Shown: positions 26,229 to 64,000, counted from the first letter of the stretch. The stretch: 64,000 bases of DNA from Deltaproteobacteria bacterium (GCA_018436855.1 JAHDKO010000135.1:22929-86928); one strand, 5' to 3'. Translations and numbers: made by a program. Notes: generated by a model not told the origin, from the sequence alone.

Positions 26229-26233
26229 GGAGG
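26229..26233 (+). promoter_or_regulatory. Ribosome-binding site (GGAGG) of giant gene
   Basis: GGAGG, then 10 nt, then ATG at 26244. Frame 0 opens after a TAA at 26202-26204. Confidence 0.6.
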
Positions 26234-26243
26234 ATCTCAGCTG

Positions 26244-26336
26244 ATGGATATGGGGAGAAATGTCGGTACCACGGTTGTACGATTTTTTCTTTCTGTTCTT
26301 TTATTTGTCATCACAACAGTGGGCACGGCACAGGCC
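26244..26336 (+). other. Sec signal peptide of giant protein
   Basis: Basic n-region (R), hydrophobic core [17 protein letters not shown] cleavage motif. Confidence 0.6.
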
Positions 26337-29300
26337 GCGGTCGGGCTGGATATTCGGGCAGCAGAGCCCTTGAGTGCATCCGGCCAGGAATCCGCTTATG
26401 TGCTGAGGATATCCGACTGCAGCGGGGTGGTGGAGATCAAGGCCGGTCAGGCCTCTGCCCCAACACCGTATTCGCCTGCCGACATCCGGCGCCTACCCGG
26501 CGACCCGGATGCCGGTGAGCTAGAATTCTCACTGCAGGGTTCCGACCGGTTTCATCCCCATGTGGAGCTGACCTTTTTCAATGGCGAGGTGCAGGCCTAT
26601 AACGAGGCATTCGTCACCGAGCCGAACAACCCCTCGCTGAGATTTCAATCCGTGTCCTTCGATGCCGACGGCCAGGACCAACGGCTGAACATATCGATCC
26701 AGGCGTCTGATGATATCGATATTTCGTACCTCGGCCTCCAGGCCGTAGGTCTTCGCATCTCAGAACTGCGTGCCGCCGGGGGCGTCATCTCCAGGGCGAG
26801 GCGGCAGGCATTTGCGGATACCTCGGGCAGCATCAGGATCTATCCGGATAGCGATGACCAGGATATATTTGAGTATAGTCTGAAGCTCGACTCGCCGCTG
26901 TCGGCCGAGGAGATGCACCACAATGCCCTGGTTCTCGTGGAAGGCCATGCTGTTGATGCCTCGGGCAACCAGAGCTCGTTCTCCGAAATCGTGATCGTCG
27001 GAGAGGACACCGAGGAGCAGATCTTCGGTATGGAAGTATCGCCTTCCAAGATCATATTCACCAATGCCATGGAGGTAGTGCAAATCATCCCGAGCATCGA
27101 GTTTCAATTCCGGGGATGGGTGCCGCTGCCGGGGGCAGGGCACGGCATCGGATTCTCCTCGTCCGATCCGTCTCTCGTGCATGTATCGAGTGACGGCCGG
27201 GTATATCCGCTGGCAGAGACGGGTGCAAGCCCCGTTCTCGTCACCGTTTCCGTCTCCGGGCTCGAATCCATGCAGGTTCCGGTGGAGGTCTCTTTCACCA
27301 AGGAACTGACAGGCCTGCGGCTCAACGGTTATGCCCCGGGCCAGACCGTTGTCCTGGATAGCCTCAACCATTTCTATCCCCTGCCCACGGTGCTCGGGGT
27401 TTTCAGCGATGGCACCGAGGCCCCGCTGACCGATTTCTATCGCGTGCAGGCGCAGGTGCCTGCGGGCGGCGAAGAGATCCTGACCGTGGACAGCGGCAAG
27501 GGGATGCTCTCCACCATGAGCATCTCCGAAGATAGCCCGATGACAGTGCATTTTACACTCATGCAGAACCCGGGCATCAGCCTCGACGTCCCGGTTGCCG
27601 CTAGGGATGCCCTTCCGGAGATCTCCCTGGATGTGCCTGACAGAGTCGAAGTGGGAGACACGGTTCTGCTGGCGGCGGATGCCTCTGACGATGTCGCCGT
27701 ACAGCGGGTGGAATTCCGTATGGACGGGGCGGTGGCGGGCCGCAGGCAGGCAGCGCCCTACGAGCTGACCATGCCGGCCGGCGAGATGCTGGAAGGCCGC
27801 GTGATCGAGGTCCAGGCAGTAGCCGTGGACAGTGCCGGCCAGATCAGGGAAACCCCGGTACGGGCGGTGACCATCGTTGCCAAAGAGGTCCCGCAGGTCC
27901 CGGCCTACGAGTTCGAACAGCCGATCAACAACCTCAGGGTCGTCGAGGGCAGCCCCTATGTCCTGAGCATCGTGTCGAATCTCGGCATAATGCCTGATAA
28001 CAGCTATGCAAGCGGCATATCATACGCCGAATTCTTTGCCGATGGCCAGAAGATAGGGACCGCCCGGTTCCCGGTGTATGAAAAGCGGCCGGTCCCGAAT
28101 CAGGATAACAAGGAATACCTGTATGAAGTCTGGAAGCTCGAGGCGGCCGCCCCTGTCATATCGACCGAGCAGACGAGCCTGGCAGTGACTGCCCGGGTCT
28201 ACAGCGGAAACGGCGGTGTCTCTGATGCGCCGGCAAAGCTCGTGAAGGTCGTCGAGAATCTCCCGCCGGCCGTCTGTATCATAAGGCCGATGGCAGACGG
28301 CATCGTGACCGCGGGCAGTCCGTTTGCCGTTGAGGTCCAGGTTTCGGACGACACCCTGTCAAAGGGGACCCTCATCGAGCTTCTGGCCGACGATGTTCGG
28401 ATCGCGGGGCGCACCTATAAAAAGGATGAAGAGGGCGTATTCACCGGTGATTACGAGGTGGAGGCCGCCAGAGAATCATTCACGCACCAGGTGGATGCCG
28501 AGGCCCTGGGCAGGGTGCTGGAGCTGAGCGCCCGGGTGGTGGATTATCACGGCAAGGTGGTCGTGTCGGAGCCGGTGCACGTATCGGTCAAGGGCGATCA
28601 GGAACCGACCGTGGCCGTCAGCCATCCCGTCGAGGGCCAGCATGTCGTGTCCGGTCTGCCCCTGGAGCTCAGGGCCAACGCGGCCGACGATCTGGGGATC
28701 AGTCAGGTCGACTTTTACATAAACGACCAGCTTGTCGGCTCAGATTACCGGACCCCGTTTGCCATCATCTACCAGACCCCGTCTTCCATCGAGACCGAAC
28801 AGCCCCTCTCTGTCTGCGCGGTGGCAACCGACACCGGCGGGCACGTGGTCCGGAGCGAGACCGTGACAGCCACCCTCGGCAGGGACGAGGAGCCGCCGGT
28901 GATCAATCTCGCCTCTCCCCCGATCAACGCCACCGACAGCGGAGACGACATCGCCTCGATCGTCGAGGAGACCGAGGCCGTGGTCAAGCTTGCCGGGTAC
29001 GATAACGTGGGAGTGGTCGAGGTCCGCCTCTCCGGCATCCGCAGGGTCGAAGGCCAGGGATACCTCCTGACCGGCAACAGTACTGACTCCATCGGCGAGG
29101 AAGAAGGGCTCAGGGTCCAGCAGCTCCCGGGTGCACTCAATGCCTACACTGCCTTTGTCCTGGTGCGGATGCCCTCGTTCAAAAACCTCAATGGGGTGCC
29201 CTTCGACCGGTACCCCATCCAGGCAGTTGCCCGGGACAGGACCGGGAACACCTCAGAGCTGAGCGCGGTTATCGGGGTGTTCAAGGATCAGCCGCCCGAG

Positions 29301-32300
29301 GTCAGGGCCCTCACGAGCGACCGGACCCGGTACTTTGTCGACGACATGGTGAACCTCGAGGTGGTGGCCCGCGATGATCGCGCAGTCACGGGGCTCACGG
29401 TCGGCCTGTTTGTGGACGAATCTACCGAACCCGTCCGGACAATCACCCACGGCCAATCAGGCGGGTTCGTGCCTATGGAGGTGGTCTCAGACCGCTTTAC
29501 CTTCTCCCTGGCCGAACTCGGCCTGAGCAATGACGGGCACGAGCTCGTGTTCGAAGCCCGGGCGCTCGACGCCATGGGGCACGAGTCCGAGGCGTGCCTG
29601 CTCCATGCATCGGTTGTCATGGACAGCGTCGGTCCGCAGGTGAGCATCGTGGAACCGCCCGTGAGTGATCCGCTCTATGCCGGCCAGAGTCCGGCCTTTG
29701 CCTGGCGGGCGGTTGACGACTCCCTGGTTTCATCCGTGCGCATAAGCGCCCTTGGCTCGGTCGTTTTCGAAAGGCAATATACCGGTTCGGAGTCAGCCGA
29801 TGCCGTCCAGGGCAGCATGGCCGTAGCCGTGCCCGCGGATGTGGCCGAAATGGTCGTCACCATCTCGGCAACCGACATCTACGGGAACGAGGGTTCACAG
29901 GACGTCTGCTACCGGGTCGAGACCGACCGGGCGCCTGAGGTGTCCATACGCACACCTTCCTCAGGGTCCCGGTTCGTAGAGGGGGAGTCCTGTACGGTAA
30001 ACGCTGTTCTGACCGACGACCGGCAGGTGGAGTCGGCCGAGGTCATGATCCTCTCGGGCAGCAACATCCTCGTGCACCGGCCGTTCGACAGTGAGGACAT
30101 CCGGCAGGCCGAGGGCCAGGGCGGATACGTCAGCATGGTGTTGACCGTTCCCACAAAGCCCCAGGGCACATCCGAGCCCATCCGTCTTGTGGTGAGGGCC
30201 TTCGACAGTGCCGGGCAGCAGGCCGAGCAGGCGATCGGCATCGAGATACTCGACGACGGCGAGCCGCCGGTGATCAGCTTGATCGACCCGCAGCAGGCCG
30301 TGGAGATCTTCCCGGGCGAGAGCATCGACATCCAGGCAAGCGCATACGACGAGACCCTCGTGGATACGGGCAGCATCGGGGTCTTTCTCATGGACGCAGA
30401 CGGCCGGGTACAGGGCGTGGAGTGGGAATACCTCGCGCTTACCGAGAAGCGTGAGGAGATACGCGTTCCCAACCCGGGGACCTTGGGCTCGATCGTGGCG
30501 GCATACCGCCACCGGGTGGACGTCAAGGGCCGCATCCGCATCCCCAGGTCGTTTATCGAGCACGCGGGGGAGACCTTCGAGCTCTTCCTGAGGGCAAGCG
30601 ACAAAGGCGTCAACACGGCCGAGACCTCCCGGGTGCCGCTGACCATACTGGCCGACACCACCGCGCCCGAGATCAGGCTTCTGGAGCCGCTGTCCCCCCT
30701 GTACGAGCAGACCGGCTCATTCCTTCGCCTGTCCGTGACCGACAATATCGCCGTGGCCGGGTACACGGTCTTCTTCAAGACAGGAGACGACCAGGCACTT
30801 TCGGTGCTCGTGGAAAAGAGCGGGCTGGAACAGGACCAGGTATTCTTCCCGGGAGCCGGGGACAGCCCGATAGCCCTGCCGCTTCCCCAGCCGTCAGGGG
30901 ATGCCAAGGCCCTGTTCACGATCACCGTAGAGGCCGTGGATACTGCTGGGAACCGGTCCATGGAGACCAGGCTCTTCGAGGTGCTTCCCGACAAGGCGCC
31001 AGCCGTAGGGCTCTTCGGGAAGTCGCCTTCGGGAGATTTTTTGCGGGCCGAGCCGGTGTCTCACGTCGTCGAGATAAGCGATGACATGATCGTGAATAAC
31101 CTGTACTTCCCGGTTCTTACCTCGCTGGACAACATCCAGGCAGACAGAGGTCCGACCGGCATCACGGCCCAGGACGGCGGGCCTGCCGTGACCATGGCAT
31201 ACCCAGAGGCGAACGGGTATGCCGGCGCGGTCTCCATCAACGGAAACCCCTATGTCTCCTTCGAGGACGGCGTGATGACCTCGTACCCGCTCGTTCCGGC
31301 GACCAGGGGGCATTTTGAGATCGATCCGGGCACCTTAAGCGCGGACGTCCTCTACAGCCTGACCATCTATTCCGACGACCCCTGCGGTGCACAGATTATT
31401 ACAAAGCAGGTCGCGGGCGGTCTGCTTCACCTGGATGATTACATCGACGAGAACACCACCCTCATCATCATCAGCCCGGACTTCTCGGCCGTGCCCGGTG
31501 CGCCGCAGTTTCTCCGGCAGATACGCGTGGACCTGAACCGGGACGAAGGGGTCGGCCGGTTCACTTTCGACGGGAGGTCATACTCGGATGACGGTCTGGT
31601 TCCCAGGGTCGAGCTGCTCATCGACGAGTCGAGAGACGGCGCCCTTAAGCCCGCCTTCATCGAGTCGCGGCCCGTGTGCAGCCAGAAGGGTGCCAGGGTG
31701 TACGCGGGGGTGGTTCTGCCCACGCCGGTCGAGCAGTCCATAGGGAGCTACTCCCTGCTTGTCCACGCCACCGACCGCCTCTCCCCGCAGAGGGGGCCCG
31801 TGGCACTGGGTGTGATCTCGACCGGGTCGGTCATGCTCGACACCGAGGCCCCGGCGGCCGCGATCGTCGAGCCCAGGCAGGGCACCGTGCTGGTGCCGTG
31901 CCAGAACATCGACCTGAGCCTGAGGGTCTCGGACAACTCCCGGACGCTTCGCACCATCCGGATACTCGAGAACCAAACCCGCCTGATCCGCGAGATCGGC
32001 GGCGCCTGCGACCGGAAAGAATATACCATACCCTACGAGGTACCACGTGAGTATTCGGGCGGAGAGCTTGAGATCTCCATCGTGGCGCTCGACGAGAGCG
32101 GCTACAGCACACAGAGCAGTGTGCTCTGTCTCCTCGACCGTAACGATGCCCCGCTGCTCAAACCGCTTGCCTTCTCGAGCTACCGGGCGGGGAATGTCTA
32201 CCGCAAGAGGATCACCGACCCGGTCTCGCTCAGTGCGGGAGAGTTCTGGGTGAGGAGCGGCGAGTCCTGCAAGGTGGAGTGCGAGCTCAGCGACGACGCC

Positions 32301-35300
32301 GGGCTGCAGGAGTTCTCGGCCTACCGCCTCTCTGCGGGCCAGCGGGCAGAGACCCTGTGCACCCGCACCTATCCCTACTCCTGTCCTGACAAGCCGGTCG
32401 TCCGCCGGAGCGAGTCGGTCGAGATCGTGTTCGATCAGATCGAACCCACCGAGTATGAGCTCGCAGTGGTCGATACCTATGGCAACACAAGCAGCCGCGT
32501 TCTCCTGATCCATCCGCTGATGAACGTGGTGCCCGAGATCCGCATAACCGGCCCGGCGGACGGGGCCGAGATCGTTGCCGGGACGCTGAGCCTCAAGGTC
32601 GGCGTCGTGGCAGCGGACGACCGGGCGATAACCCAGGACTCGGTCCGGGTGTTCGCCAACGGGGTGCCGCTGTCGTCCATGTGCGTGGGCGGCGACATCT
32701 CGGGCGGACAGAGCGCGGTGCACGAGGCATTTCTCTCGATATACGACAGCCTGGAGAGCAGGTACGGCAAAACCATCGCGGACGAGTACGGTGTGCAGAG
32801 CGGGGTGAACATCCTGATGAGGAACTACCTCCTCACCATGCCTTCGGGCCTGTACCAGCCGGGTGAGGACCTGACCATCTCCGCCTATGTCTATGACTCG
32901 GACAGTGCTGCGGGCATGGATGAGCACTCCCTGGCGGTCAGGGCGGACGACGTGATGCCCGAGGTGATCGTGAGCCCCTCGCAGAGCTCGTATGGACCCA
33001 TCGAGAACACGGACTTCACACTCTCGGTCCAGGGCCGCGACAATATCAAGGTCAACCGGATCGAGATCTACCGGGCATACGGTGTGCTCACCACGCAGTC
33101 AACAGTCGTGAGGACGCCGTACGAGCTGGTGAGGGCGATCGACACCATCCCCGCCCAGGACTACGAGCCCATCGATCCCGACTGGATCGATACCCCCGTG
33201 TATGACCAGCTCATGCACGTGGGACGGATGAGCGAGATTCTTTCGCACTTCGACGGTCTGAGCACCGCCGACATCGCCCGTTATGACCTGTGGGTACGGG
33301 TGGTGGTCAGGGATTCGAGTTTGAGCAGGGAATCCGAGCATTCCTACATGATCCGGATCGACGAGAGGCCGGTGATCGACCTCATCCGTCCCGCCCAGGA
33401 CAGCCAGGCGGTGGAGTCGACCGATCTCACGGTCCGGGTGGACGCGTTCGACGATGTGGGCATCTCGTATGTCATGCTGAGGGCAGACTATCCCGGCGGC
33501 TCCCCCTCGTACGAGCTCAAGCTCCTGAATGCCCCCTACCACTTCTCGGTGCCGGTGCCGGCATATGATCCGGACAATCCCGGCAACAACCGCGTTGATC
33601 TGTCGGTGGAGGCGATCGACACCTATGGGGTGCAGTTCAACGATCCCGACGGGCACGCGGTCTCCAAGAACGTGTCCGTGCTCGTCGTGCGGGACGAGTC
33701 GCCCACCATCGAGATCGCACAGCCCCAGGACAACCATACCCTCACCGAGGGGAGCTATCTGCTGGTGAAGGCCGTGGCCCTCGACGACGTGGGTGTCGAC
33801 CGGGTTGTCCTGAACATCAGCGGGCTCACCCAGGGAGACCGGAGCATGGTCGACCTCGAGTATCCGTACGAGTTCATCTTCGAGGTGCCGTGCGGGCAGG
33901 CGGGCAAAGACCTCGCACTGACCGCATCGGTCACGGAAAAACGGCGGGGAGGAATCCCGCGGACCGTAGAGACCCCGGTGCCGGTCCATGTCCATGTGCA
34001 GCAGGACACCCAGGCACCCGACATCAACGTTGTCCAGCCGGCATCGAGCGGCACGACCGTGGTCGAAAAGCGGCCGCTGCCGTATCACCTGATCATCCAG
34101 GACAACGTGAGTGTCAGCTCGGTGCGGGCCATGCTCTATGCCGACCGGAACCTCGACGGCCAGTTCGGCGAGGACGAGCGCGTCGAGGAAGCGCTGCTCC
34201 TGAGTGCGCCGTATAGCGGCACCTTGCCGGTAAAGACCCTCGATGTTTATCGTGCCGTACCCCCCGGCGACGATCGGCTGGCGCTCCTGTTCAAGGCTAT
34301 AGCCGTCGACGGCATCGGCAATGAATCGATCGCGACCAGGCCCGTGACCCTGGTGCGCAACACCCCGCCCGAGGTGACCGGCATCCGCGTGCTGGACAAC
34401 CGCGGGTTCAGTCTGGGACAGATCGCCGAGATCACCCAGGGCCGTCCCATCGTGCTCAATGTCCTGGCAAGCGATTCCGAGGCGGGAGTGGACAGCGCCG
34501 AGCTCCTGTATGCAATCGGCACTGATCCGGAGCAGGAGGATTTCGTTCTGCTCGGGCAGGACAGCGCCGCGCCGTTCAATTTCCATTTCCAGGTTCCTGC
34601 AGGCCCCGTTGGCGAGCAGGTCTTCTTCAAGGCCAGTGCCCGGGATATCGACGGCTACGAGTCATCGCTCAGCGATGTCATGCTTGCCCTGACCATCACG
34701 GCCGACAAGCCTCCCACGGCACGGATCGTCGATCCCGACAGCAGCCAGGCCGTGGTTATCGAAGGCGAGTCCATCGGCGTCACGGCAGAGGTGCACGACG
34801 ACCTCGGGTCCGAGGGCATCGACCGGGTGGTGTTCTATGTGGATTCCCAGCCCGTGATCTCGGTGTATCAGAGCATGGCGGTGACCGGTGGAGGGTTCGG
34901 GCAGGCACACCTTTACCATACCGACATCAACGCCCCGGAAGGGGTGGACGGCTTTGTCGTCCAGGCGATCGCCTACGACATCCTGGGCCAGGCCGGCGAG
35001 TCACAGATGGTCCTGATCGGGAAGATCAAGGACACCGTGGTGCCCAAGGTCAAGATCCTCTCCCCCGTGGACAACGAGATACTCACCACCGCAGAGCCCA
35101 TCCGGGCCGTGGTGGGAGTGGAAGACGTGGGGGAGATCGATCGGGTCGTCCTGACCTTCTACCGGCAGCATCAGGAGGGAGGCGAATGGGTGACGCTCGA
35201 CGAGTATGCCCTGAACCTGTTCCGTGACGATGTCAGGCAGGAGGGCGACACCACGCCGGTGAGCGACCCGGACTGTTTCTCCTACATCTACTGGGCGGAT

Positions 35301-38300
35301 TTCTCGGGCGGGAATATCCTGCGCCGGGGCGGGCACATGCGCGAGCGTGTGCTGGCCGTGGCCGAGGTGCAGACCCCCAACCACACCGTGAACGCGCAGG
35401 CCGCCTACGAGGTGGGCTGGGCCCTGAGCGAGAGGCGGTTTTCGAGCCCGGCGGAAGACCGCTTCGACCTGGCGGACGAGGTGTACTATACCGCCGTGGA
35501 CCAGTACCTGAGCAAGGGGAGATCAGGCCCCATGGTTGCGGCATGGGCGAGTGCCGACCCGATGAGGATTGAGCAGGGCCTTGGAAACGAGACCATCGAG
35601 GAACTGGGCGGCGGTGCATTGCAATACACCGGGATTGCGCTGTTCGATGCCACGGACAACGAGCAGGGCAACGGCCTTGGCGACTACTTCGTCTATTCAC
35701 CCCTGCTCAGCGGCTCTGCAGAGATGTTCGCCGGCACTATCGGCGAGATTTCCTGCGACGCCAATACGGTATTTGCCGGCAAATCAGGGGTGATCGGCCG
35801 GCAGCTCCAGCCGAACCCCGACAGCCACAGCAACACCGGAACAGACAGATTCCTGCTGTCCATGAAGAGCGAGATACAGAAAGACTGGCTCGATGGCGTG
35901 AAGGGAAGCGGGAACCTCTATCTTGAGAACACGGATGCCGAGCTGCTGATCTTCTCGCCGATGAACGGCGAGTACCAGCTCGGTCTTCCCTACCTGCTCG
36001 CCGGCCGCGTGGACCTGCCGTATCCCGACGTCTATGGTCTTGACCGCAGGGACGATCTCGTGTTTGTGGCCAACGGCTATGGCGGTGTTCAGGTCATCGA
36101 CATCAGCTCCTTCGAGGCCCCCTACCACGTCAGCTTCATCAAACCAAACGGTTTTACCCGCGACGTGCAGGTGCAGGGCAATTTCGCATTCATAGCAGCC
36201 TCCCACGAGGGGGTGGTGGTGGCCGACATCCGGGATCCGCTCATGCCCATCGTGGGCGGGGTTGACACCCTGGGTGTCGCCAACCGTATCCACCTGGCGG
36301 GCAACCGGCTGTTCGTCTCCGATATGGCAGGCGACGGCGGGGTGTCGCAGATCAATGTCATCGATATCTCGGACCCGTACCATCCCGAGGTGGTGCGGAC
36401 CATCGAGCTGAAGCCCGCACGGGCCGACCTGGTCCCTGACGGGGTGTACGACGTGACCCTCCAGGGCAACCTGGCCTATGTGACCGTGCACTACTCCGAT
36501 CAGGAGGATCACCCGGCCCAGTCGCTCGTGGAGATCATCGATCTCGAGAAAGAGCTCGACCCGTCGTGGGATCCGACCGTTCCGGTCATGACCCACCGCT
36601 TCGCGAGCAAAGTTGACTTCGCGGCCCGCGGCGTAACACTGGCCCGCGGCGGCATGCAGGTGGCTGCCGGCAAGTCCGGAATCGACCGCATAGAGTTCAC
36701 CGAGCTGACTATCTTAAGCCACTCCCCGGCTTATGGGGAGCATGATGTGCCTACCAATCTCGAAAGGATCACTATCGAACTCTCGGGTGTCCTGGGATCG
36801 GATGTGGTTTTGGGGGACTACGTCGAGGTGGTCCAGGGCGACGCCCTCATCGGCGAGCATGTCACCTCCCGGTTCCAGCTCGCGTATGCGCTGCGGGACG
36901 GCGAGCCGAACCGGCGGATCATCGAGCTTATCCGCAGCGATCAGTTCGAGCTGGTCCCGAACACACGGTATTTTGTCAGGCTCAAACAAGGACTGAGCGC
37001 TGTTTCGGGCTATGCCCTGGCCAGGGACTATGTCTTCGGGTTCTGGACATCCGGGGCAGGCGCTGCGCCGGCCCCGGATATCGTGTCGATCTGTCCCCTT
37101 GGAGCAGATGGAGACCATGCCTGCATCGCGGCAGGGGGCACCGAAGGCGGGACCGAACTGGTGATCCGCGGGGTCAATTTCGGGACAGACCCGCAGCTTT
37201 TCATCGGCGGGCAACCCATCGTGGTCGAGGAGGTGGAGCCTGCCGGCACGGTCGACGGGTTCGACCGGATCTATGCCGTGACCATCCCGAACTATGCCGG
37301 GCCTGCAGCAGTGACGGTGATCAACGACCACGGTCTCGAAGACACGGTCTACGGCGGGTTCACCTATGTAGACCAGCTCAAGATATCCTTTATCAACCCT
37401 TCGGTGGTCCGAACCGGCCAGACCGGTGCGAACGACGTGGTCGAGGTCACGGGCTACGGGTTCCACAACGGCATCACGCTGACCGCGACCAGGAGCGGCG
37501 ATCCGGATTCGGCTGTCACATACCGGGTAGACAACGAGCACCTGTCGCTCTACAGCGCCGAGCGCATGCAGTGGGTGGTGCCGGATTTCAGAAACTCGGA
37601 CGGGAAAGGCTACCGGGGATTCGTGGATGTCGAGGTCACAGACGAGCTCGGCAGGCGGTTCGTGCTGATGAACGCCCTGTTCTACGGCCGTCTCGAGGTC
37701 AACCATGTGCTCGAGACCGAAAATCCGTACAGCGCATCGGCTATCAGGGCCGAACTCGAGGCCCTGGCGAAAGGAGAGCCCACGGGTTATCTCCCCGATA
37801 CCCTGAAGCTGCCCGCGGGCACCATCGCCGGCCTGGCCGCCGATACCAGGCTCAACCTGGCGTATGTCCTGGGCCGGGGAGTGCTGGGAAGCGGAGTCAA
37901 AGGGCCTGAATACGTCTATGATCCCGACTATGTCGGGCACTACTATGCCCCGGGCTGGATCGGTCTTGTCCGGTATTATCCTGACAGGATCCCCGATGCC
38001 GCGCCGGTGCACGGGTTCTACTCAATCCTGCCGCAGGACATCGTGGCCAATGGCATGGCACTGGGTCCGGATTATGTCTATGTCATTGCACAAGGATACT
38101 CGTTCCCGCACATCGAAACCGAACACGACGGGCGCTCGTGGCTGCTCGTATACGAGAGGGAGACAGAGCCGTTGCCCGATAACCCCCAGCCCAAGGACAA
38201 GTCCGTCCTCTACGAAGTGCCGCTGCCGATCGACACCTCTCCGGAGAAGATCGTCACGGCCGGCAGGCTCGCCTTTGTCAGCGCGGGTGAGAGCGGGGTC

Positions 38301-53300: not shown

Positions 53301-56300
53301 ATCGACGGGCTGCCCGGCACGGTCTACCCGCAGACGCGGCTGTGCCTCGAACTCATGCAGCAGCTCCCGGGCGGCCAGGTTCAGGCGCTCGGGTCCGAGT
53401 TCGGCGCCTCGCTCAGGGTATTCCGGGGCGACGAGGCGGTCCCGGTTGCCTCTGCCGACCGTGCGGTGCTGAACATGGACGTGCCGGCGGATGCGGCGGC
53501 CCTGACTATTGTCGGGCAGATTCAGGATGCATCCGGGAACTCCCGCGAAACCAGGCAGCGGATCCTGGTCATCGACCACCTGCGGTGTGCCCCTGCGGCG
53601 CAGACACTCGCGTATGACGCCTTCCTGCCCGCAGTGGGCGGGTACTGGTATGCGAAGGGTCATGACCTTTCGAGCAGCACCGGCAGTAATCATGCCTTCG
53701 AGGCGCCGGTGACGGCACTCGCGCACCTGGGCAGCAACCTGCTCGTGGCACTTGAGGGAACGGGGCTCGTGATCGTGGACCCCGAGCAGGAGTTCCGGAT
53801 GCTCGGAAACAGAACCCTCTCCGCGAGGATCGAGCACCTGGCCGCCAATGAACAGCGTATCGTGGCGGCGACCCGGAATTCCCTGCTTCTCTACCGGGTG
53901 AGCGGCAATGACATGGAGTATTTCAGAACCCTGGCCCTGCACGACGAGATCCTGGATGTCAGGCCGTACGGTGATGCCTTCCTGGTGCTGACCTGTCACG
54001 AGCTGCGCATGATCGACGCCGGGGGGACCACCCTCCACGCCGCTCAGGGCAGCGAGTTCAGGGCCATGGCGGTACACGACAGGGAATTCTACGTGCTCGA
54101 TGCATACGGCGAGCTGGCAAAATACGGATCGGACCTCACCCGGCTGGCCTCGCTGAGCCGGGCCGGCGGAGAGCGGATGGTCGCCCTCCAGGGCTATCTG
54201 GCCCTGATGGACAGCATGTCGGGCATGATCCGGGTCGTGGATGTGGGCAGTCGTGGTCGTATGGAGCTTGTTGCCGCATGGCCCGTGGGTTTTGCGCCCT
54301 TCATAGCCGATGCGGCCGTATCATCCGGGATGATCTTCTCGGGCGATGCCCGGGGCACGATCGTCGAGGTCGCATACCCCGAGTCCGGCTTCGAGGTGCT
54401 CTTCGATGCAGAGACCGCAGGCAAGCCCACGCCCGGATACGTGCTCGATCTCGCCCTGTGCGACGGCATCGCCGTGAGTGCTGCGGACAACTACGGGGCT
54501 ATTGTCTACCGGCCTGACAGCCGGGGCGCATACTCCCAGCAGTCGTATCCTGCCACCGGATTTGCCGAGGCCGCGGGCAGAGCCGCCTGCGACAAGCAGC
54601 GCTGCTATGTGCTCCAGCCCAGGGAGAACCGCGTGCGCTTCTTCGACCCGGCAATACTCCAGGGAGGAGATCTCTTCGCCGGCCGGGCGTTTGTCGATCT
54701 CGCACTGACGAGTTCCCACGTCGTTGCCGCCGAGGGCGGCAGCCTGTACCGGGCGAGCCGTGCGGATCTTTCCGAGCAGCCCGCGATCGATGTTGCGGGG
54801 AGTGAGAACATTGTCCGGATCGCTGCAGGCGGATATCGGGTCGCGGCGGTGACCGACGCGAACAGCATTTATCTGGCCGACATGCAGACCGCCGGTGTCA
54901 GGGCCGTGGTGGAGGGCGAGGCCCAGCCCATAGGCCTTGTCGCCCTGAGCAACGACTACCTGTTCTACAGCCTGGGCACCGGCATTCGCCGGGTCAGAAT
55001 ACACGACGGCGCGGTTGTAGACGGCGGGCTGCAGGGTGCGCGGTACATCGCGGCCCTGGAATATGCCCAGGGTCTGCTGTGGTGCGCCTTCGAGCATGAC
55101 GACGGATACGGCGTGGCCGCTCTGGATCCCATGAATCTGAGCACGGTGGACGGCTCCATCGTCGATCTGGACACCGAGATCACGGCGCTGGCCGTCGAGA
55201 ACGACCGTCTGGCGGTCGGGCTGGGCAGCCAGGGCATACGGGTCTACCTGATGCCGCAGAGGCTGATGAGGGCCCAGGCATCTCCGGATACCCCGCTTGC
55301 CGGGGTCACCTTCCAGTGCACGGACCTCATGCGGGTGCAGATGCCGCAGTCACCGGGCGTGGCGGCGGTGCAGTACCTGATCAATGGCGAGACGGTCGCA
55401 ACCGGCAGCCATGCACCCTTCGCCGTCGACATCCCCCTGCCCGCGAACCTGCCCAACGGGCAGCCCTTTGTGCTCGACACGCGCCTGGAGTGTGTCTCCG
55501 GCGCGGTGATCGATGCCGAGCAGAGGCCATTGTTCCTCCATTCAAAAGGGCTTGCGGCCAATGACCTGAGGGTGGAGGTGCAGGTTTCCGAGCACAGTTG
55601 GGGACCTGCCCCTCTGGAGATCCGGGCCGGCATCGTCCATACCGACCATCCGATTTCACGGGTCGAGTATTACCTCTCCCAGAGCCCGATGGGACCCTAC
55701 CAGTTTATCGGCGAGCATTTCGGGCCCGAGTTTGTCATCTTCCGCTACTACGACGACAGCTACAGCGGATACTATGTCAAGGTGCGCGCCATCGATGTGT
55801 TCGGCAACGCGGTGGACTCGCTCCCGAAGCGGTTCTACCGGCACCAGGACAATGCAAACCCCACGGCCGGGTTTGCGGTGACCGGCCTTGCGGTCAAGGA
55901 CGGCGGCTCGCGCGTGGTGGTCGACACCGGCTACCGGGTGGCGGTCACGGTCGGCGACGCCGAGAGCGGGGTCAGGCAGGCCTTCCTGAAGAGCCGCGGC
56001 AGGATCGTCAAGGCGATCTTCGGCCAGGGCACCATCACCCTGGACGAAATCGCCGGGTCGCTGGGCACCCTCGTCTACGATGTCGAGGTGACCGACAACG
56101 CCGGCAACTGCTGCACTGCATCGCATGTCATCGAGGTGGTGAGCGACAGCAGCCCGGACCTTCAGATCGACAACTCTCCGGCCTCCATACGCGAGAGGAC
56201 GAGCTTCACGGTGAAATTCACCGCTGAAGACGACGTGAGCCTGGCGTTTGCCGAGATATCCTGGAACGGGTTCACCACGCACGTGGACCTCGGTTCCGCG

Positions 56301-59300
56301 GACGAGACCCGGACGGTGCAGATCTCCGATACCCGGAGCGAGCGTGTCGAGACCTCCTTGGAAGGCCAGCTGAGCATCCGGGTGGTGGACAGCATCGGCC
56401 AGGAGGCCGTCCGCTCGAGGCCGATCACCGTCAATCGCGACCAGTCGCCCGACCTTTCTTCCCTCGGCGTGACGCATCCCTTCCAGGCCTTCTTCGGCAG
56501 GGAGGCGCGGATCGTGCTCGAAGGCGTCAACAGGCTGGACGACAGCGACAGGTATAAACTCCAGATCATCGACACGAGCAGCGGCAGCCCTGCCGTCGTA
56601 TACGACAGCGCGCTTCAATCGTGGGGCAGCTCGTTTACGCGCAATCTCGCCATGCCGGCAGCCCAATCAGGCCTCACCCAGTACCGGTTTATCGTGGCCG
56701 CGGTGGACGAGCTCGGTCAGCGGGCCGAATCGGCTGAATATGCCATCGATCTGAGACAGGCGCCCAACCTGATCAGGTTCAGGGCCGCCAGTGAGCAGCA
56801 AAACCGGACAACGGTGCGGGTCGGCGAACAGCCCCAGTACCGCGTGGAGGTCCTGGACGCCGACGGCCGCCCTGTCGAAGATGTGGACGTGAGATGGCAG
56901 CTGGTGCCTCTCTCAGGCCAGGCCGGCACCATGGGGACAAGCGCAACCGACAGCCTCGGGTTTGCATTCCTGACCCTCAACACCTCCCGGACCGCCCAGA
57001 GCTACACCCTCCAGGCAGGCCTTGTCCTGATGCACGAGGTGGGGTCCGCCCGGCTGCCGGTCACCGTCATGCCCGGTGAAACCAGAAGGCTTGCATTCGA
57101 TTATCCACCCCAGGTGGCTGCCGGCGGGGCCTTCACCCTGGCCGTGCAGGCCTTTGATGCCTGCAACAACGAGGTCCATGAAGACGGCGCCACCACCTTC
57201 ACCCTGACCATGCCCGATGATGGGTTCCATTTCGTGCCTGCCGCCGGGGTGCAGATCGGACAGGTGTCCATGAACTCGGTCATGGTGGAACGGGCCGTGT
57301 GCACCCTGTCAGCAGGCCGGGCGGATATCGGCGTTATAGCCGCAACCTCGGCCGGCACCCGTGAGATCGGCGTAGGCGCGGGCGGCGGCATAACCGCTCC
57401 TTCGGTCCTGCCGGTCACGATCATTGCGGGCGTCCCGCAGAGCCTGGTCTTCCTGGACGAGAATCTCCAGGTCCAGCCTGCCGGTTCTCCTGCGCATTGC
57501 GGCATCAAGCAGGCGGCCCGGGTGCATCTTGCCCTGTTCGACCAGTACGGCAACCGGGTAACAAGTGCCGGAGCGGGCTGCCCGGTGAGCGTCGGTGCCA
57601 CCGGAAGCGCCCGCATCGACGGCCGGGAGTCTCCGGCAGAGGTCGTGCTGGTGCAGGGCATGGCGGAATTCCTTGTGCAGGACGACACCGTCGAGACCGT
57701 GACGCTGTCGATCCACAGCGTGGGTCAGCCGTTTGCAGGCATCGATACCTCGTCAGTGTTCCGGCTGGCGTTCGATCAGTCGCCGCCGCAGATCGTGCAG
57801 GCGGTCGGCGAGGCAGGCGTGAACACGGAGGTCCTGCATGCGAAGTTCGTCTATGACGAGCCCGTGGAGGCCAACACGCAAGGGCCTCTGGTCGAGCTGC
57901 TCCTGGATGAGAACGTCCTGGATGCGGAGGCTGCGATAGGCGAAGACTCCCAGACGGTCATCCTCGAGCCTGCTGAGGCAATGCAGCTCGGCACGGCCTA
58001 CCACTACAGCACCGGGAACTCGGTGCTCGTCGCGGCGGCAAGCGGAGAGGGCGTCATGCCGCAGGCCGGCGTGCTGGAAATGCCGGACTGCCTGGTAAAG
58101 GTGCCGCCCGTGCTCGCGGTCCTGGAAGGGCAGCTCATGACAGTCGGTTTCGCGTTGGCCCCGGGTGTGAGCTATTCCGGCATCACATCCGGCCGGTACT
58201 GCATCGGCACCGGTTCCGAAGGCGAGGATATCTGCGGCGGGTTCGACTGGGCATACAACCGGACCGTGCCGATCCCGGCATTCTCGCAGTACGGGCAGCC
58301 TCCTGTCCAGGACGGCGGCACCGTGGTGTTCGAGTTCAGCGGATACATGGGCGGACGCGAACTGCGGGTCGGCAACAGCCTGGCATTGCAGGTGTTCGTG
58401 GAGGGCCGCGACTTCGACGGAGACGGTCTGAACAACGAGCTGGAGATCGAGGTCGGCCTCGATCCCGCCCTGGCGGACAGCGACGGCGACGGCATCGAAG
58501 ACGGGCTCGACGACCTCGACGGCGACGGGCTGAGCAACCTGGCAGAGGTTGCCGCTGGTACAGATCTGCTCGTCTTCGATACGGACGGCGACGGTCTGGG
58601 GGACGGCGCAGAGGTCTTGACGCACGGTTCCGACCCGCTCAAGATCGATACGGACGGCGACGGTCTCTCCGACGGCGACGAGGTGAGCTCTATCCCGTAT
58701 TCCAGCCCGAACAAGGTCGACACGGACGATGACGGCATTCCCGACAACGTTGAGCGGCAGTATGGCCTGAACCCGTCCGACCCCGCAGATGCAGCGGCCG
58801 ACCTTGACGGTGATGGGCTGAGCAACCTGGAAGAGCTCCAGCTCGGCACTGCAATCAACCTCGCCGATACGGACGGCGACGGGCTGTCCGACGGCCAGGA
58901 GGTGAACGGGGCAACCCCGACCGATCCGCTGAAGCAAGACACCGATTCAGACGGCCTGCCGGATAACGAAGATTACGAGCCCGGTACGGCCGACAGCGTG
59001 CCGCCCCTTGTCGTTCTGGTCGAGCCAGAGGCGCAGAGCACATTCATCAAGGGCCAAACTATCAGGGTGCGTGCATTGGTCGAGGACCAGGGCCGCATCG
59101 AATATGTCCGGCTGAAGGTCGACGGGGTGCAGGTCAGGGAGACCAGTCCTGAGGGCAGTGTCCAACAGTACGGGTTCGAGTACACGATTACGCTGCCCGC
59201 AGACGCGGAGCAGGCAGTCATCGAGGTGCTGGCGCAAGACACGAACGAAAATATCGGGACCACGGGCGAGCATGTCTTCACGCTCATCGACGATCCCATG

Positions 59301-62300
59301 ACCGCGGTCATGGGCGTGGTGGCGGATGCGGACGGCATCGGGGTCGGAGGGGCAACGGTCAGCGCCCACGGCTTCGAGGCGCTGACGCAATCCAACGGCG
59401 TATTCGTCATCATGAATGTGCCCGTGCTGCTGGGCGACGTGCAGGTGACCGCCCGGGTGACCCGGGACGGCATCGACTACGTGGCCAGAAGCGGCATCCA
59501 CCCGCCGGTATGGGCCGGCACCACCGACGTGGGGACCCTGACCCTGCGCCGCGACAAGAGCAAGGTGGGCTACTACCATGCCACCTACGACCGGGGCCAG
59601 GACTACCAGCGCCTCATCATCGAGAGCTCGGGCATGAAGCCGGTGCTCGTCCAGACCCTTGCAACCTTCGACCTCTCGGAGATCGACATGCTCATGGTCG
59701 ACACCAACCATGCCCAGGGGAGCAACTACTATTACAGCAACCTGCAGAAGGTGTTCGATTTCGTGGCCGAGGGCGGTGCTCTGATCATCCACGAAACCGA
59801 TGCGTGCGGCACCGCCTACACGGCGGCGGACGACATCCCGGGCGCACCGGGGTCGCTGGTCGACTCCACGATAAACGGCAGGGCCTGCCCGTGGTACCGG
59901 TTCAATGCCATAGGAGACGGGCCGGCAGGGCAGTTTGATCAGACACCACACGCAAGCGGACTCGCCACCGGTCACTTTGACCGCACGTCGCTCGGCATGG
60001 ACGTGACCCCGTGGGTCTATGCGAACGACCCCATGGACGGACAGGTTCTTTCCATCAGCTATCCGTGGGGCCAGGGGCTGGTATACGTCTCCACCATCCG
60101 GATCGAGGTCCTGATCCAGGAAGTCTTCCACACCATCTATGCGCCCAACGCTCTGAACGCCATGCACAGGCTCATGCAGCCCGACACCGATTTCGACGGC
60201 CTGGACGATTTCACCGAGTTCGATCTGGGCACGTCTTCGACCAATCAGGACACGGACGGCGACGGGCTGAGCGACCGGTTCGAGGTCAGGTACGGGTTCG
60301 ATCCTCTGCTCGCCTGCGGAGAGGCTGAACTCGACAGCGACGGAGACGGCCTGACCAACGTGCAGGAGCAGGCCGCAGGCACCCATCCGCACAGGGAAGA
60401 CAGCGATGGTGACGGCCTCTCCGATCTGCTGGAGATCGAGTTCACCTCTGACCCGCTCTTCATCGACACCGACTTCGACGGCCTGATCGACAGCAGGGAG
60501 TACGGTTATTATGCGGATCCGCATGTGGCGGACACGGACGGCGACGGGTTGAGCGATTACGACGAGGTCATGGTTTACTACTCCCATCCCGGATCCCTGG
60601 ACGGCGACCGTGACGGCATGTCCGACGCGTTCGAGGTCGAGCAGGGCATGAATCCGGGCCTGGGGTTCGACGCATACTGTGACGATGACAACGACGGCAT
60701 ATCCAACCGGGAGGAGCTGCTGGTCCACGGCACCGACTATCAGGAGCCCGACAGCGACTTCGACGGTCTCGACGACTCACAGGAACTGGCCCTGGGCTAT
60801 GATCCGAACAACCCTGACTGCGACGACGACGGGCTCCCCGACGGTTACGACTACGAGCCCATGGTCGCCGATCTGACCGCCCCGGTGGTCTCCCTGCTCA
60901 CGCCCGAACCCGGCTCCGATCTGGTCAGTGGAGGACAGGTGCGCCTGTCGGTCGAGATCGTGGAGCAGGGAAAGATAGGCGAGGCGGTGTTCACGGTCAA
61001 CGGTATTGAAACACGCCTGACGCAGGCCCCGTACAGCATTATCGCCCAGGTGCCGGATGGCGTGGGCACTCTCTCCATCGAGGTGTGGGCGACCGATTCC
61101 AATAATAACACCGGGTCCACAGGCACCATGGTGTTCAGCATCATCGACGACACCCTGATGACAATCACGGGCCGGGTGGTGAACGAGCTCGGCAACGGTG
61201 TGGCAAGCGCCACGGTGACCACGGCAGGCGTGACGGCCCAATCGGACCAGAGCGGATACTTCGTGCTCGACCAGGTGCCGACCACCGAGGCGGAGCTTAA
61301 GGTCAGCGCCTCGGCGCTCTTCGGCGCCCAGGAGGTTTCCGGTGTGAGTGAACCGTTTGTGCCGAGGCACGGGGAAATGATCGATGCCGGAGAGATTCTG
61401 ATATCCTGTGAACTTTATGTCCCTTATACAGGTCTCATACCAGAGGCAGACCTTGCGTACGATGGAGAGACTGTCATTGAATACCTGTACAACCTGTATG
61501 ACGGGAGTGGTTATCTCTGGGATATACACCGTCAGTACGGCTATATCTACGATGGTACAAGCGATGCATTCGACAGTGGATATCGTCTCTCAGTAAACAA
61601 CCAGGATTATATAGCGGATTACCGGATAGCGGTGAAAACGCGCATGAACGGGCGTGAGCTTACCTTCATGCCCCGGATGTTCGGTGATTTTCAGGTCCAT
61701 CGCAAGATATATGTACCTGGGGACAAGCAGTATGCGCGCTTCATGGAGGTGATCGAGAATACCTCTGATGTTGAACAGAGCATATCGATAAGGCTTCAAT
61801 CATCTATCGAGGGCTACGTCCGGTACACATCATCGGGAGATACCAGTCTCACTGCATCGGATGGATATGTGGTAACCGACGACAACTATGCGACATACGG
61901 AGATCCTTCGGTTGCCCATATATTCAGAGGACCCGATGGTGGTCGCGTAGGCCAGTACAACCCATACTTTACCGGCAGCTATGGGAGTATATACATCAAC
62001 TATTCGCTCACAGTGCCTGCTGGATGCCGTGCCATAATCCTCCACTATTCACTCCAGGATTTCAGCCGTTACACCGCGAATGCCCTTGCCCAGGACATAT
62101 ATTCATCCGCCGGACGGAGTGATCTGATCGAGGGCCTCACCCGTGAAGAATTCATGGATGTGGCAAACTATTCCTTCCTGAAGGACAGCGATGGAGACGG
62201 TCTGGCCGATTACGAAGAGGTGCTTCTGGGACTGGATCCCGCCAGTATCGATACAGACGGCGACGGCCTCACGGATGGATTCGAGCATAGATACGGTTTC

Positions 62301-64000
62301 GATGCCCTCGGCACTGACGAGTCGGCCCTAGACCCGGACACGGATGGTCTGACCAACCTCGAGGAGCAGGCCGCCGGAACCGATCCGTTTGCAGAAGACA
62401 CCGACGGAGACAGCCTGAGCGATTATGACGAGGTCATGACCCACGGCTCGAACCCCTTACTGGTTGACTCCGACGGCGATGGCCTGCGTGACGATCGGGA
62501 GATCGCCATTGGCACGGGTGCGATGGATGAGGATTCCGATGGCGACGGTCTGAGCGACGGTGATGAGGTGAACATTTATGGCACTGATCCTCTTCTGGTC
62601 GACTCTGATAACGACGGCATGGATGACATGTTCGAGGTGGAATACGATCTTCTGAATGCCGACCCGGACGGAGACGAGGACGCAGACGGCCTTACCAACC
62701 TCCAGGAAGCGAGTCTTGGCACCGATCCCAGGAACCCGGATACCGACGACGATTACCTCAAGGATGGCTGGGAGGTTAATAGCTATCAGACCGATCCTTT
62801 TGAAAGAGACAGCGATGGCTCCGGGCGATGGGACATCGACGAGTTGTTCATGGATTATTCAGATCCGAACCTTGCAGGCGACGATCTTGCCAAGGACGAC
62901 ATCAGCACCACCCTTGTGGATGAAGACGGCCGATCGTGGTTCTTCAGTTACGGGCTTCTCGAATATGCCTGCAGCGGTTCGTACACGACTTTTGAAAACA
63001 GTCTCGCGCTGTACGTGAACGGACAGAAGTATTCGACTGACTATTGGTATACCGATTATGGCCGACTAGACAGGCGCGAACTGGTTCTCGATACAAGAAC
63101 GCTGGGCAACCTGGCCGTCGGCAGGAGAGCCTTTGTGCCGGCTGCGGGAGGCGCCTTTGTCAGGTGCCTCGACATCATCACCAATCCGACCGGGGTGTCC
63201 CAGGAGGTTTCCGTCCGGCTGAAATCCTCGATCGGGGAGTATGACGAGGCAGTGGAGCCGAATGTTCTGACCAGCAGCGGCGGCGACTCATATAATCCCG
63301 GAGATCTCTACGCCGTCTTCCAGGACCCCGTGAACATCAACCGGCCTATCGGTGCACACCTGTTTGCCGGCCCCAACGCCGAAGTGCAGCCTGATGCCTC
63401 ATCAGGAATTACGAGCGGCGAGAGAGACTGGCATGTTGACTACACCTTCACCATACCCCCGGGAGAGCAACGCATGCTTGTGTACTTCCTCAGCCAGGAA
63501 GGCAGTGTGAGCAATGCGGTCGACACCATGGAGTGGCTCCTGAACATGCCCGAGATCGCCTTGCAGGGGCTCACCGAGGAAGAGAAAGCGTTGGTGGTCA
63601 ACCTGTTCCCCTATCCGGACAGCGACCGCGACGGAATGAGCGACGAGGACGAGCTGGTCTACGGGTGCGAACCCGACAACCCGGACAGCGACGGCGACGG
63701 CCTGCCCGACGGCTGTGACCATGACCCGCTCAACCCGGACAGCGACTTCCCGGCTGTCACCCTGGAGTCGCCCCAGGCGGGCCTGACGCTCTTCAAGGGC
63801 GAGACCGTGTGGATCCATGCACGGCCCCAGGACCAGGGCATGGTGCCCGCGATCGATCTCTGGGTAAACGGCGAGCTGTTCACCAGCCTCTCGTATCCGG
63901 ACTACTGGGTCGAGTACGTGGTGGACGATGCCCTGGACGCGCTGCAGATCGAGGCCATTGCCACGGACACTGCCGGCAACTCGGGCACCACGGGGATCCT
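26244..64000 (+). CDS. Giant secreted/cell-surface multidomain protein (partial; >12,585 aa within window): Ig-like array + LVIVD beta-propeller/IPT-TIG repeats + TSP3 calcium-binding modules
   Basis: My translation of frame 0 (positions divisible by 3) from the ATG at 26244 gives [31 protein letters not shown]|AVG, a signal peptide. Samples at 37140, 41538, 58410 and 63960 are all in the same frame with coherent domain sequence. The ORF track reports no complete frame-0 ORF anywhere after 25610, which is expected if the ORF runs off the window end. The opposite strand has only fragmented ORFs. Confidence 0.85.
27600..35400 (+). repeat. Tandem array of ~30 Ig-like (Big_7/Big_2-type) domains within giant gene
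   Basis: A recurring ~90-100-aa unit: P.V.I..P..G..V..G..L.L.A.A.DD.GI..V.FY.DG......D...PY.F, ending ...A.D..GN. Example: [52 protein letters not shown]...ATDTGGH. Protein-level repeats with diverged DNA. Boundaries approximate. Confidence 0.6.
35800..55250 (+). other. Zone of alternating LVIVD-type beta-propeller repeats and IPT/TIG domains within giant gene
   Basis: LVIVD-like blades ([19 protein letters not shown]..., [48 protein letters not shown]), around 35.9-36.5, 39.8-40.8, 42.7-43.0, 44.0-44.4, 45.8-46.7, 47.8-48.6 and 53.7-55.2 kb. IPT/TIG domains ([32 protein letters not shown]; [29 protein letters not shown]; [37 protein letters not shown]), around 37.1-37.7, 39.2-39.8, 41.5-41.8, 43.4-43.6, 45.2-45.8, 47.2-47.8 and 48.9-49.5 kb. 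Approximate coordinates. Confidence 0.6.
58410..58980 (+). repeat. Thrombospondin type-3-like calcium-binding repeat array 1 (DxDxDGxxD motifs)
   Basis: [112 protein letters not shown]. Visible in the DNA as recurring gacacggacggcgacgg. Confidence 0.8.
59290..59470 (+). other. CarboxypepD_reg-like domain (copy 1) in giant protein
   Basis: [39 protein letters not shown]...VQVTARV, a G.V.D..G.P..GATV..G....T...G.F.....P.G pattern. A second copy lies at ~61150-61330 ([40 protein letters not shown]). Confidence 0.5.
60182..60862 (+). repeat. TSP3-like calcium-binding repeat array 2
   Basis: [120 protein letters not shown]. Confidence 0.8.
62184..62850 (+). repeat. TSP3-like calcium-binding repeat array 3
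   Basis: [114 protein letters not shown]. Confidence 0.8.
63618..63745 (+). repeat. TSP3-like calcium-binding repeat array 4 (short)
   Basis: [43 protein letters not shown]. Confidence 0.7.

Follow-up and report, generated by a model that had tools for sequence, protein, structure and literature searches.

The giant adhesins of the type I secretion system (T1SS)/repeats-in-toxin (RTX) class, such as those of the LapA, SiiE and MpIBP types, are very long, acidic, calcium-stiffened strings of immunoglobulin (Ig)-like domains with ligand-binding modules near one end, by means of which Gram-negative bacteria attach to surfaces or to cells; these proteins have no N-terminal Sec signal, carry C-terminal GGxGxD repeats together with a secretion signal, and contain many near-identical tandem repeats. 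The stretch of DNA analysed here—64,000 nucleotides from a Deltaproteobacteria bacterium (GCA_018436855.1, JAHDKO010000135.1:22929-86928), the whole of which we call the window—encodes a giant protein that resembles those adhesins in being very long, acidic and made up of Ig-like strings with predicted calcium stiffening, but differs from them in having a Sec signal, no GGxGxD motif in view, a largely non-repetitive sequence and, in its relatives, a C-terminus of three FN3 domains. We confirmed that the window carries a genuine gene, open without interruption for 12,585 codons or more, the product of which shows, as read from sequence, an extracellular-type architecture rich in Ig and propeller domains, with a Sec signal and predicted calcium binding. 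The explanation that best accounts for the whole, and which we consider likely, is that of a giant secreted calcium-binding surface protein, exported through Sec, folded with the help of peptidyl-prolyl isomerases (PPIases) and acting as an extracellular adhesin or fibre.

Bacterial proteins of very great size have been divided into a large class of at least 10,000 amino acids (aa; a single open reading frame, or ORF, of >30,000 bp) and a giant class of at least 30,000 aa, the reported maxima being 85,804 and 36,805 aa (10.1101/2023.11.21.568195). Among them, the Archaeovorin-type giants of Omnitrophota are marked by many transmembrane segments together with a divergent DEAD helicase domain of the SecA kind, the Dockerin-type giants combine many dockerin/EF-hand repeats with bacterial TSP3 repeats, and the giant genes of Omnitrophota are flanked by genes resembling the type II secretion system (T2SS) and by a Rotamase_2 isomerase (10.1101/2023.11.21.568195). 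Our protein is like the giants of West-Roberts et al. (2023) in its very long ORF, its predicted extracellular location, its TSP3 repeats and attachment-type domains, the large share of its sequence that can be annotated by structure prediction only, and the presence nearby of a Rotamase_2 PPIase and of genes resembling the T2SS, which here are GspC/GspD in two relatives; compared with those giants of 30-86 thousand aa (kaa), however, it is of 13.8 kaa, bears a cleavable Sec signal, and has its PPIases as a conserved lipoprotein pair immediately downstream, while its hosts—Desulfobacterota, Gammaproteobacteria and Myxococcota—belong to other phyla. Over all the protein in view we found no transmembrane array and no SecA/helicase Pfam match of the Archaeovorin kind, and, alongside a strong TSP3_bac match (1.8e-57), no dockerin in any chunk. 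A further parallel is offered by the giant symbiosis proteins of the Chlorochromatium aggregatum epibiont, of 36,805 and ~25,000 aa (cited in 10.1101/2023.11.21.568195), in that there, too, giant proteins of a bacterium living in obligate physical or metabolic partnership are proposed to serve partner contact; compared by description, the epibiont proteins are larger, repeat-rich, and furnished with haemagglutinin/RTX-type and toxin-like domains. With respect to other export routes, neither a beta-barrel translocator nor a two-partner-secretion domain, as in type V secretion, was detected by Pfam/NCBIfam in the first 1,000 aa of the window protein or in the last 1,333 aa of its relatives, and the relatives' C-termini contained no PEP motif or transmembrane segment of the PEP-CTERM kind.

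With 37,755 nt open in view and ~41.5 kb predicted, the gene belongs to the class of at least 10,000 aa, and with ~13,820 aa predicted and family sums of 13.3-14.3 kaa it lies outside that of at least 30,000 aa. The first-pass annotation, made from the sequence alone, had expected it to rank with the largest bacterial proteins, which expectation stands insofar as the class of at least 10,000 aa is rare, and fails insofar as ~13.8 kaa is well under the known maxima: size of this order is in itself rare but known, and here far below 36,805 and 85,804 aa (10.1101/2023.11.21.568195). What appear to be new are, instead, an orthologous, largely non-repetitive family of 13-14 kaa that spans phyla, a fixed pair of PPIase genes, and an unannotated supersandwich domain.

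The beginning of the gene comprises the following features:

26229..26233, plus strand: Shine-Dalgarno sequence GGAGG, read from the sequence 10 nt 5' of the ATG at 26244
26244..64000, plus strand: giant ORF, 5' part, recognised by the lack of any stop, by coding periodicity, by relatives and by whole-length colinearity
26244..26336, plus strand: predicted Sec-type signal peptide, aa 1-31 (cleavage between AQA and A), the strongest hydrophobic segment, with a leader conserved in homologues

Stop mapping in the frame of this ATG gave zero stops as far as 64000, which puts 12,585 codons in view; the nearest upstream in-frame stop is the TAA at 26202-26204, from which the frame is open as of 26205, and each of the five remaining frames contained between 64 and 498 stops over the same stretch. 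From the regional base composition, the probability of 12,585 stop-free codons was computed as ~1e-156. The guanine-plus-cytosine (GC) content at codon positions 1/2/3 was ~0.65/0.44/0.81 in each 3-kb block, from which uniformity the whole stretch looks coding in that frame. These results bear out the earlier proposal of a single ORF of >37.7 kb, open to the window's edge amid fragmented frames and preceded by that TAA and by GGAGG; the stop-codon check that had been suggested for 26205-64000 accordingly found nothing in frame, and the four positions sampled at that time (37140, 41538, 58410 and 63960) all fall arithmetically in the frame of the giant ORF, 58410 being the first codon of the first DxDxDG motif. 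The ORF is indeed absent from the ORF track, as had been remarked, because that listing leaves out ORFs running off the source; the track contains only shorter, mainly antisense ORFs. As a separate observation, a chain of antisense "shadow" ORFs of 333-969 aa lies opposite the giant gene in one frame of the minus strand (29909-60728; for example, 41445-44354), such ORFs being typical of genes with high GC at the third codon position, and a gene caller failing on the giant ORF could output them in its place.

The signal peptide that had been read in the first residues likewise held, being the sole signal-peptide-shaped hydrophobic segment in view: three weaker stretches sit at threshold, and no convincing internal membrane-spanning segment was found in the protein in view. 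After the predicted cleavage the protein would begin AVGLDIR. A query with the N-terminal 1,000 aa retrieved 11 partial proteins of 36-44% identity from metagenomes and from metagenome-assembled genomes (MAGs) of Deltaproteobacteria, Gammaproteobacteria, Desulfobacteraceae, Desulfobacterales and Polyangiaceae; all except one, which is without its own N-terminus, have a hydrophobic leader, in most instances signal-peptide-like, followed by a DIR...Y.L.I.DC motif. This leader and motif, shared by 10 of the 11, support ATG 26244 as the probable start.

Giant repetitive genes are often misassembled, and six metagenome contigs sharing an identical LepA gene all end before this one, so that the possibility of concatenated or collapsed repeats, or of several genes joined into a chimera, had to be weighed against a single gene. 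When the DNA from 26244 to 64000 was compared with itself, the best internal match had 70-74% identity over ~100-150 nt and the longest extended over 236 nt at 66%; Tandem Repeats Finder reported nothing. In the absence of near-identical or tandem DNA repeats—none above ~74% identity or longer than ~240 nt—the concern about repeat collapse is removed, and the check for repeat concatenation that the first-pass annotation had recommended was negative. At the protein level, self-similarity was weak and concentrated in aa 10,700-12,585 (maximum 57% over 132 aa), whereas the protein self-comparison found none within aa ~7,300-10,700; a scarcity of internal repeats of this kind is unusual for a very long bacterial ORF. 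Independent assemblies (Phox-21, SM3-B3m and JGI Ga0208694) moreover contain the same colinear ORF over ~11.5 kb with 86-92% protein identity, and distant orthologues reproduce the domain order along the full length. We therefore consider an assembly artefact to be excluded for practical purposes.

To find close relatives, species representatives of GTDB and the JGI metagenomes were scanned with the last 400 aa in view. The GTDB scan gave three loci, two of them (L007 and L008) in the MAG Deltaproteobacteria bacterium SM3-B3m and the third (L009) in Deltaproteobacteria bacterium Phox-21, which is Ca. Phosphitivorax anaerolimi; the JGI scan gave only L028, the source contig of Phox-21. L007 aligns to window aa 8731-12585 with 91.9% identity and 13 gap columns, and L009, L008 and L028 to aa 8855-12585 with 86.2%. 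Nei-Gojobori ratios of nonsynonymous to synonymous substitution (dN/dS) were 0.24 and 0.22, respectively, and every block of ~400 codons remained below 0.33. The host would be a bacterium related to Ca. Phosphitivorax, and the gene is conserved with a dN/dS of ~0.23. In every one of these loci the ORF runs on for 1,237 codons past the counterpart of the last residue in view before reaching its stop, from which we infer a full length of ~13,820 aa, encoded by a predicted gene of ~41.5 kb; neither the scan of GTDB representatives nor that of JGI metagenomes contained the 3' end belonging to the window itself. The Ca. Phosphitivorax lineage, which falls in Desulfomonilia_A, order UBA1062, is made up of bacteria from anaerobic digesters that oxidise phosphite or live as syntrophs oxidising butyrate (PMC7082340; 10.1101/2020.12.28.424620). 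In SM3-B3m we also observed two versions of the giant gene, one (L008) 99.6% identical to that of Phox-21 and the other (L007) 88.6-91%, with L007 at 93% to the window in this comparison; both contigs break ~1.3 kb past the stop, within a PPIase region 98.7% identical between them, and the two versions represent either two strains binned together or two paralogous copies.

The wider family became visible when aa 8301-9500 were searched exhaustively with HMMER against 1.84 billion representatives: there were 124 matches, the best at 30% identity and many of them 3-7.5 kaa long. A word-indexed protein search lists no giant relatives, and its negatives for very long proteins are not readable as absence: aa 8191-9450 returned nothing, and the last 1,000 aa only TSP3-driven matches, none longer than ~1,740 aa. 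Three of the alignments, colinear over thousands of residues, are these:

P0131, residues 1-6188: window aa 5063-11312, 29.7% identity
P0154, residues 23-5451: window aa 5291-10846, ~28% identity
P0138, residues 1-3491: window aa 9087-12585, 40.7% identity

Three named public entries are colinear with the window protein at 28-29% identity: WP_102532236.1, an "IPT/TIG domain-containing protein" of 7,232 aa from Shewanella sp. 10N.286.52.B9 (aa 5291-10846), MCG8471537.1 from a Desulfobacterales MAG (partial; aa 4937-10257) and HED40313.1 from a Chromatiales MAG (aa 6772-10774). These are true homologues, but fragments under generic names with no described function—the Shewanella ORF runs off its contig end—whereas in the window the ORF is unbroken over 12,585 codons. 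The window protein is tiled in order by L043 over aa 30-4970 (40-46% identity), L039 over 2494-5862 (38%), L040 over 5745-9028 (41%) and P0138 over 9087-12585 (41%), and by other homologues at 25-32%. It thus possesses both the signal peptide followed by the DIR...Y.L.I.DC head and, from aa 30 to 12585, colinearity with other members from end to end. On these alignments, the giant gene would belong to a rare orthologous family of 13-14 kaa (13.3-14.3), colinear from end to end across phyla; we found no paper describing it, its pair of PPIase genes or the supersandwich domain in the searchable literature, which is incomplete.

Several relatives are called in pieces, a circumstance that might suggest two or more adjacent genes, or else a decaying pseudogene:

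L039: 5,786 + 7,538 aa, total ~13.3 kaa, split by a 1-nt frameshift
L040: 9,036 + 5,159 aa, total at least 14.2 kaa, split by a 10-N scaffold gap
L041: 5.1 + 6.2 kaa, split by a single TAA within a TIG domain
L043: 1,632 + 12,627 aa, total ~14.26 kaa, split by a frameshift in a G-run

The breakpoints nevertheless differ each time and fall within domains, which makes the single long ORF the norm of the family and the window copy an intact example of it; furthermore, that copy is uninterrupted, with a dN/dS of ~0.23 in every block. We hence judge adjacent genes or a pseudogene to be very improbable, and reject both together with the misassembly, the misassembly and multi-gene readings being considered excluded. 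The view that one uninterrupted gene leaves the window thereby gains the support of colinear relatives, of the dN/dS, and of a shared start, signal peptide and N-terminal motif, and the remark that genes of this kind are often split or missed in annotation is true of the relatives, with their contig ends, 10-N gap, frameshifts and stop.

Pfam recognises an estimated quarter of the giant protein, the architecture of which is as follows:

26337..27623, plus strand: conserved N-terminal head, aa 32-460, without Pfam/NCBIfam match, present in 11 homologues
27615..34907, plus strand: Ig-like array (Big_7, DUF4625, Big_3_3-like), aa ~458-2888, by Pfam
36030..47759, plus strand: some six divergent modules of LVIVD beta-propeller and TIG/IPT domains, plus Big_5, aa 3263-7172, by Pfam
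47841..58343, plus strand: central region, aa ~7200-10700, with few weak Pfam matches and no internal repeats, colinear with the family
58410..58973, plus strand: TSP3 block 1 (DxDxDG), by Pfam TSP3_bac and motif positions
59421..60203, plus strand: U1, an alpha/beta domain, tentatively ThuA/GATase1-like
60183..60863, plus strand: TSP3 block 2, then Big_7 and CarboxypepD_reg, by Pfam, motifs and internal hidden Markov models (HMMs)
61443..62186, plus strand: U domain copy 1, a galactose-mutarotase-like beta-supersandwich, by an alignment-built HMM (E 4e-81)
62184..62723, plus strand: TSP3 block 3, by Pfam and motif positions
62841..63623, plus strand: U domain copy 2 (the modelled copy), of no Pfam family, by fold match
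63618..63926, plus strand: TSP3 block 4 and Big_7, by Pfam, motifs and internal HMMs, after which the ORF leaves the window

The head matched no Pfam or NCBIfam family at E<=10, and was covered by the 11 partial homologues in local phmmer runs (E 1e-77 to 1e-100). Iterated internal HMMs recovered 8 Big_7-like copies in the Ig-like array and, in the modules that follow with a period of ~650-800 aa, 13 LVIVD-like and 8 TIG-like segments in alternation. The central region contains LVIVD-like propeller sequence and Big_1/MG4-like Ig domains, and the 124 representatives that match its aa 8301-9500 are in many instances colinear over thousands of residues. From aa 10,723 onwards a super-repeat is arrayed, in which ~9 TSP3 repeats are followed by Big_7, CarboxypepD_reg, and a supersandwich or alpha/beta domain; 28 DxDxDG motifs are in view, and acidic residues (14.1%) outnumber basic ones (6.6%) in the protein. 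In the relatives the three C-terminal FN3 domains lead to sequences ending in ...LQEETVAW and ...RTPLIPS.

The structure model of the U domain matches in fold the N-terminal supersandwich domains of GH15/GH65/GH94 enzymes and aldose epimerases; the model of U1 was poor (pLDDT, the predicted local distance difference test, of 55), and its ThuA-like assignment is tentative. Sequence searches of the PDB with U1 and the U domain gave no matches. Apart from the giant protein itself, we observed a supersandwich domain of ~250 aa between TSP3 blocks, without Pfam model and often twice per protein, in at least 15 retrieved TSP3 proteins (NCBI, ENA and JGI), the match list spanning Myxococcota, Kiritimatiellia and Asgard archaea; from its sequence, this is a candidate new domain family.

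Downstream of the giant gene, two genes for parvulin-type PPIases follow directly in L009, L038, L039, L040 and L042, of which L009 is the closest relative with a visible flank carrying the pair, and the first PPIase is visible in L007 as well. After the pair comes a large protein of the TSP3/Glucodextran_B/PA14 type with a signal peptide, of 1.8-3.2 kaa in L038, L039 and L042 and running off the locus in L009 and L040; an additional protein of ~2.1 kaa is next in L038 and L042 (Big_1/Invasin_D3 or Phosphodiest matches). The PPIase pair and the large proteins are present downstream at the Shewanella locus. The coordinates of these downstream clusters are:

L009: 14955-21202
L038: 21854-31761
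L039: 32642-42617
L040: 25682-29007
L042: 21481-31466

Between loci the first PPIase is 41-55% identical, and as such better conserved than the giant protein, and the second 30-33%; all of them carry a signal sequence whose end is a Cys set in a lipobox-like context. NCBIfam gave nothing above cutoff for the giant N-terminus, the PPIases or the companion protein, the EpsD model scoring 33 bits against a cutoff of 109. A resemblance of the companion to MshQ was not supported by NCBIfam either. Upstream, a pair of GspC and GspD (secretin) genes of T2SS type adjoins the start of the giant gene divergently in L043 (7238-9764) and L047 (3571-6196); the pair is orphan-looking, with a dCache-GGDEF cyclase also beside it in L047 and integrase genes nearby in L043. 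It was not found next to the start in L044, L045, L046 or the window.

Some of these features could be reconciled with a giant attack or degradative protein that, in the manner of Archaeovorin, attaches to other cells and digests their walls: the U domain shares its fold with N-terminal domains of glycoside hydrolases and phosphorylases, U1 resembles ThuA/GH42M-type domains, the neighbouring proteins bear Glucodextran_B and PA14 domains, and the Omnitrophota giants have similar T2SS-like and Rotamase_2 flanks (10.1101/2023.11.21.568195). Pfam and NCBIfam, however, revealed no catalytic domain anywhere in view, nor is there an HExxH motif; the folds matched are those of accessory, non-catalytic modules; transmembrane arrays and a SecA-like domain are lacking; and descriptions of the lineage present it as living in syntrophy and not by predation (PMC7082340). 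We accordingly regard a degradative role as improbable.

The acidic composition, the predicted calcium binding, the richness in Ig/FN3 domains, the lack of an anchor and the co-encoded large surface proteins would also fit a structural component of the envelope, namely, a coat resembling an S-layer or a sheath, or a scaffold for an intercellular matrix, instead of a target-specific adhesin. A single chain of 13.8 kaa is nonetheless unlikely as the subunit of a lattice, and the presence of so many different modules, conserved and not repeated, speaks for more than one specific interaction, so that a coat is in our opinion unlikely. Both the degradative and the structural role are thus rated below the adhesin or fibre, although the present data do not separate the coat from the latter.

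Under the surface adhesin or fibre that we prefer, the unfolded chain would be exported through Sec and its folding outside the cytoplasm aided by the two dedicated lipoprotein parvulin-type PPIases encoded immediately downstream in the orthologous loci, while the outer membrane might be crossed by means of a secretin, in view of the private GspC/GspD pair located divergently beside the gene in one clade. The result would be a calcium-stiffened extracellular fibre some hundreds of nm long, whose propellers and sugar-binding-like supersandwich domains would tether the cell to its partners or to a matrix of polysaccharide, the plausible targets in this lineage being methanogen partners or the flocs of digesters. 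Attachment to a partner or a floc is an attractive reading given the syntrophic lifestyle of the lineage.

Several points weigh against this proposal. The U domain may be called sugar-binding-like on the basis of its model, but a fold similarity at 5-16% identity is no proof of sugar binding, and neither a catalytic site nor a proven ligand-binding site was identified in the giant protein. Since the relatives' C-terminus has no recognisable anchor, the protein could be released instead of cell-bound. In this genome, both the end of the giant gene and its downstream neighbours lie beyond the window and are deduced from relatives. The locus L041, besides its in-frame stop, is without the PPIase pair, a 5.7-kaa beta-helix protein following the giant gene instead. 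As for secretion, GspC/GspD are adjacent in only two of the six visible upstream contexts, these two probably representing one clade, and the 26 kb upstream of the giant gene in the window contain no secretion genes.

A broader and more speculative possibility, which we advance tentatively, is that of an unrecognised system common to several phyla, of which this gene would be the best-preserved example and in which a largely non-repetitive, orthologous secreted protein of 13-14 kaa, a pair of lipoprotein PPIases, TSP3 companions of 2-3 kaa and, in some lineages, a private GspC/GspD pair would build a giant surface fibre; in obligate syntrophs of the Phosphitivorax type, that fibre would bind the cell to its methanogenic partner. 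A giant adhesin would there be a candidate for the physical partner coupling that the metabolism of such organisms needs. Most of the giant extracellular proteins described are lineage-specific expansions of repeats, from which the present one differs: its conservation module by module, at 25-46% identity across Desulfobacterota, Gammaproteobacteria and Myxococcota, implies that its full length has long been under selection, and the conserved operon with two PPIases provides a handle on the folding and export of a chain of this size. Because public databases hold the family almost only as generically named fragments, the intact copy may serve as a reference for re-annotation; the occurrence of one member in a cultured isolate (Shewanella sp. 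10N.286.52.B9) makes the function genetically testable; and the supersandwich domain, found in many unrelated TSP3 proteins including those of Asgard archaea, merits a family model.

The 26 kb located 5' of the giant gene are those of an ordinary anaerobe chromosome, with genes for lactate permease, 2-oxoacid:ferredoxin oxidoreductase, NadC, a HemN-like radical-SAM protein, LepA, an amidohydrolase, a TetR regulator and an ABC substrate-binding protein. Immediately before the gene are:

24950..26243, unstranded: AT-rich region of 1.3 kb with ~47% GC, recognised by composition and presumably holding the promoter
~25320-25470, minus strand: putative IS5-like transposase C-terminal remnant, with the translation "...WFNQFRKVIVRYEKSLASFLALHQLAATIISIRK", which resembles the C-termini of the IS5 family

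Neither promoter-like nor terminator-like matches 5' of the giant gene exceeded those of shuffle controls, and no Rfam family matched the window at gathering thresholds, a result that leaves no riboswitch ahead of the gene. The six metagenome contigs with the identical LepA (L001-L006) have 99.3% identity to window positions 9445-18309 and, over 18598-25155, only 84-91%, with rearrangements and a different order of the TetR and ABC-substrate-binding genes; this abrupt drop in identity after 18309 marks the boundary of a recombined or variable region just ahead of the giant gene. L001, a candidate for ending in the N-terminus of the giant gene, proved not to do so. Finally, in a chromosome otherwise of 58-64% GC, a low-GC patch at 1940-5956 (GC 0.46-0.47) encodes an Mrr-like restriction endonuclease with a Zn-ribbon (1940-2761), an SNase/Ada-Zn-binding protein (2801-3460, minus strand) and a RES-domain toxin-like protein (4712-5422) with small ORFs on either side, so that the patch looks like a defence or mobile islet.

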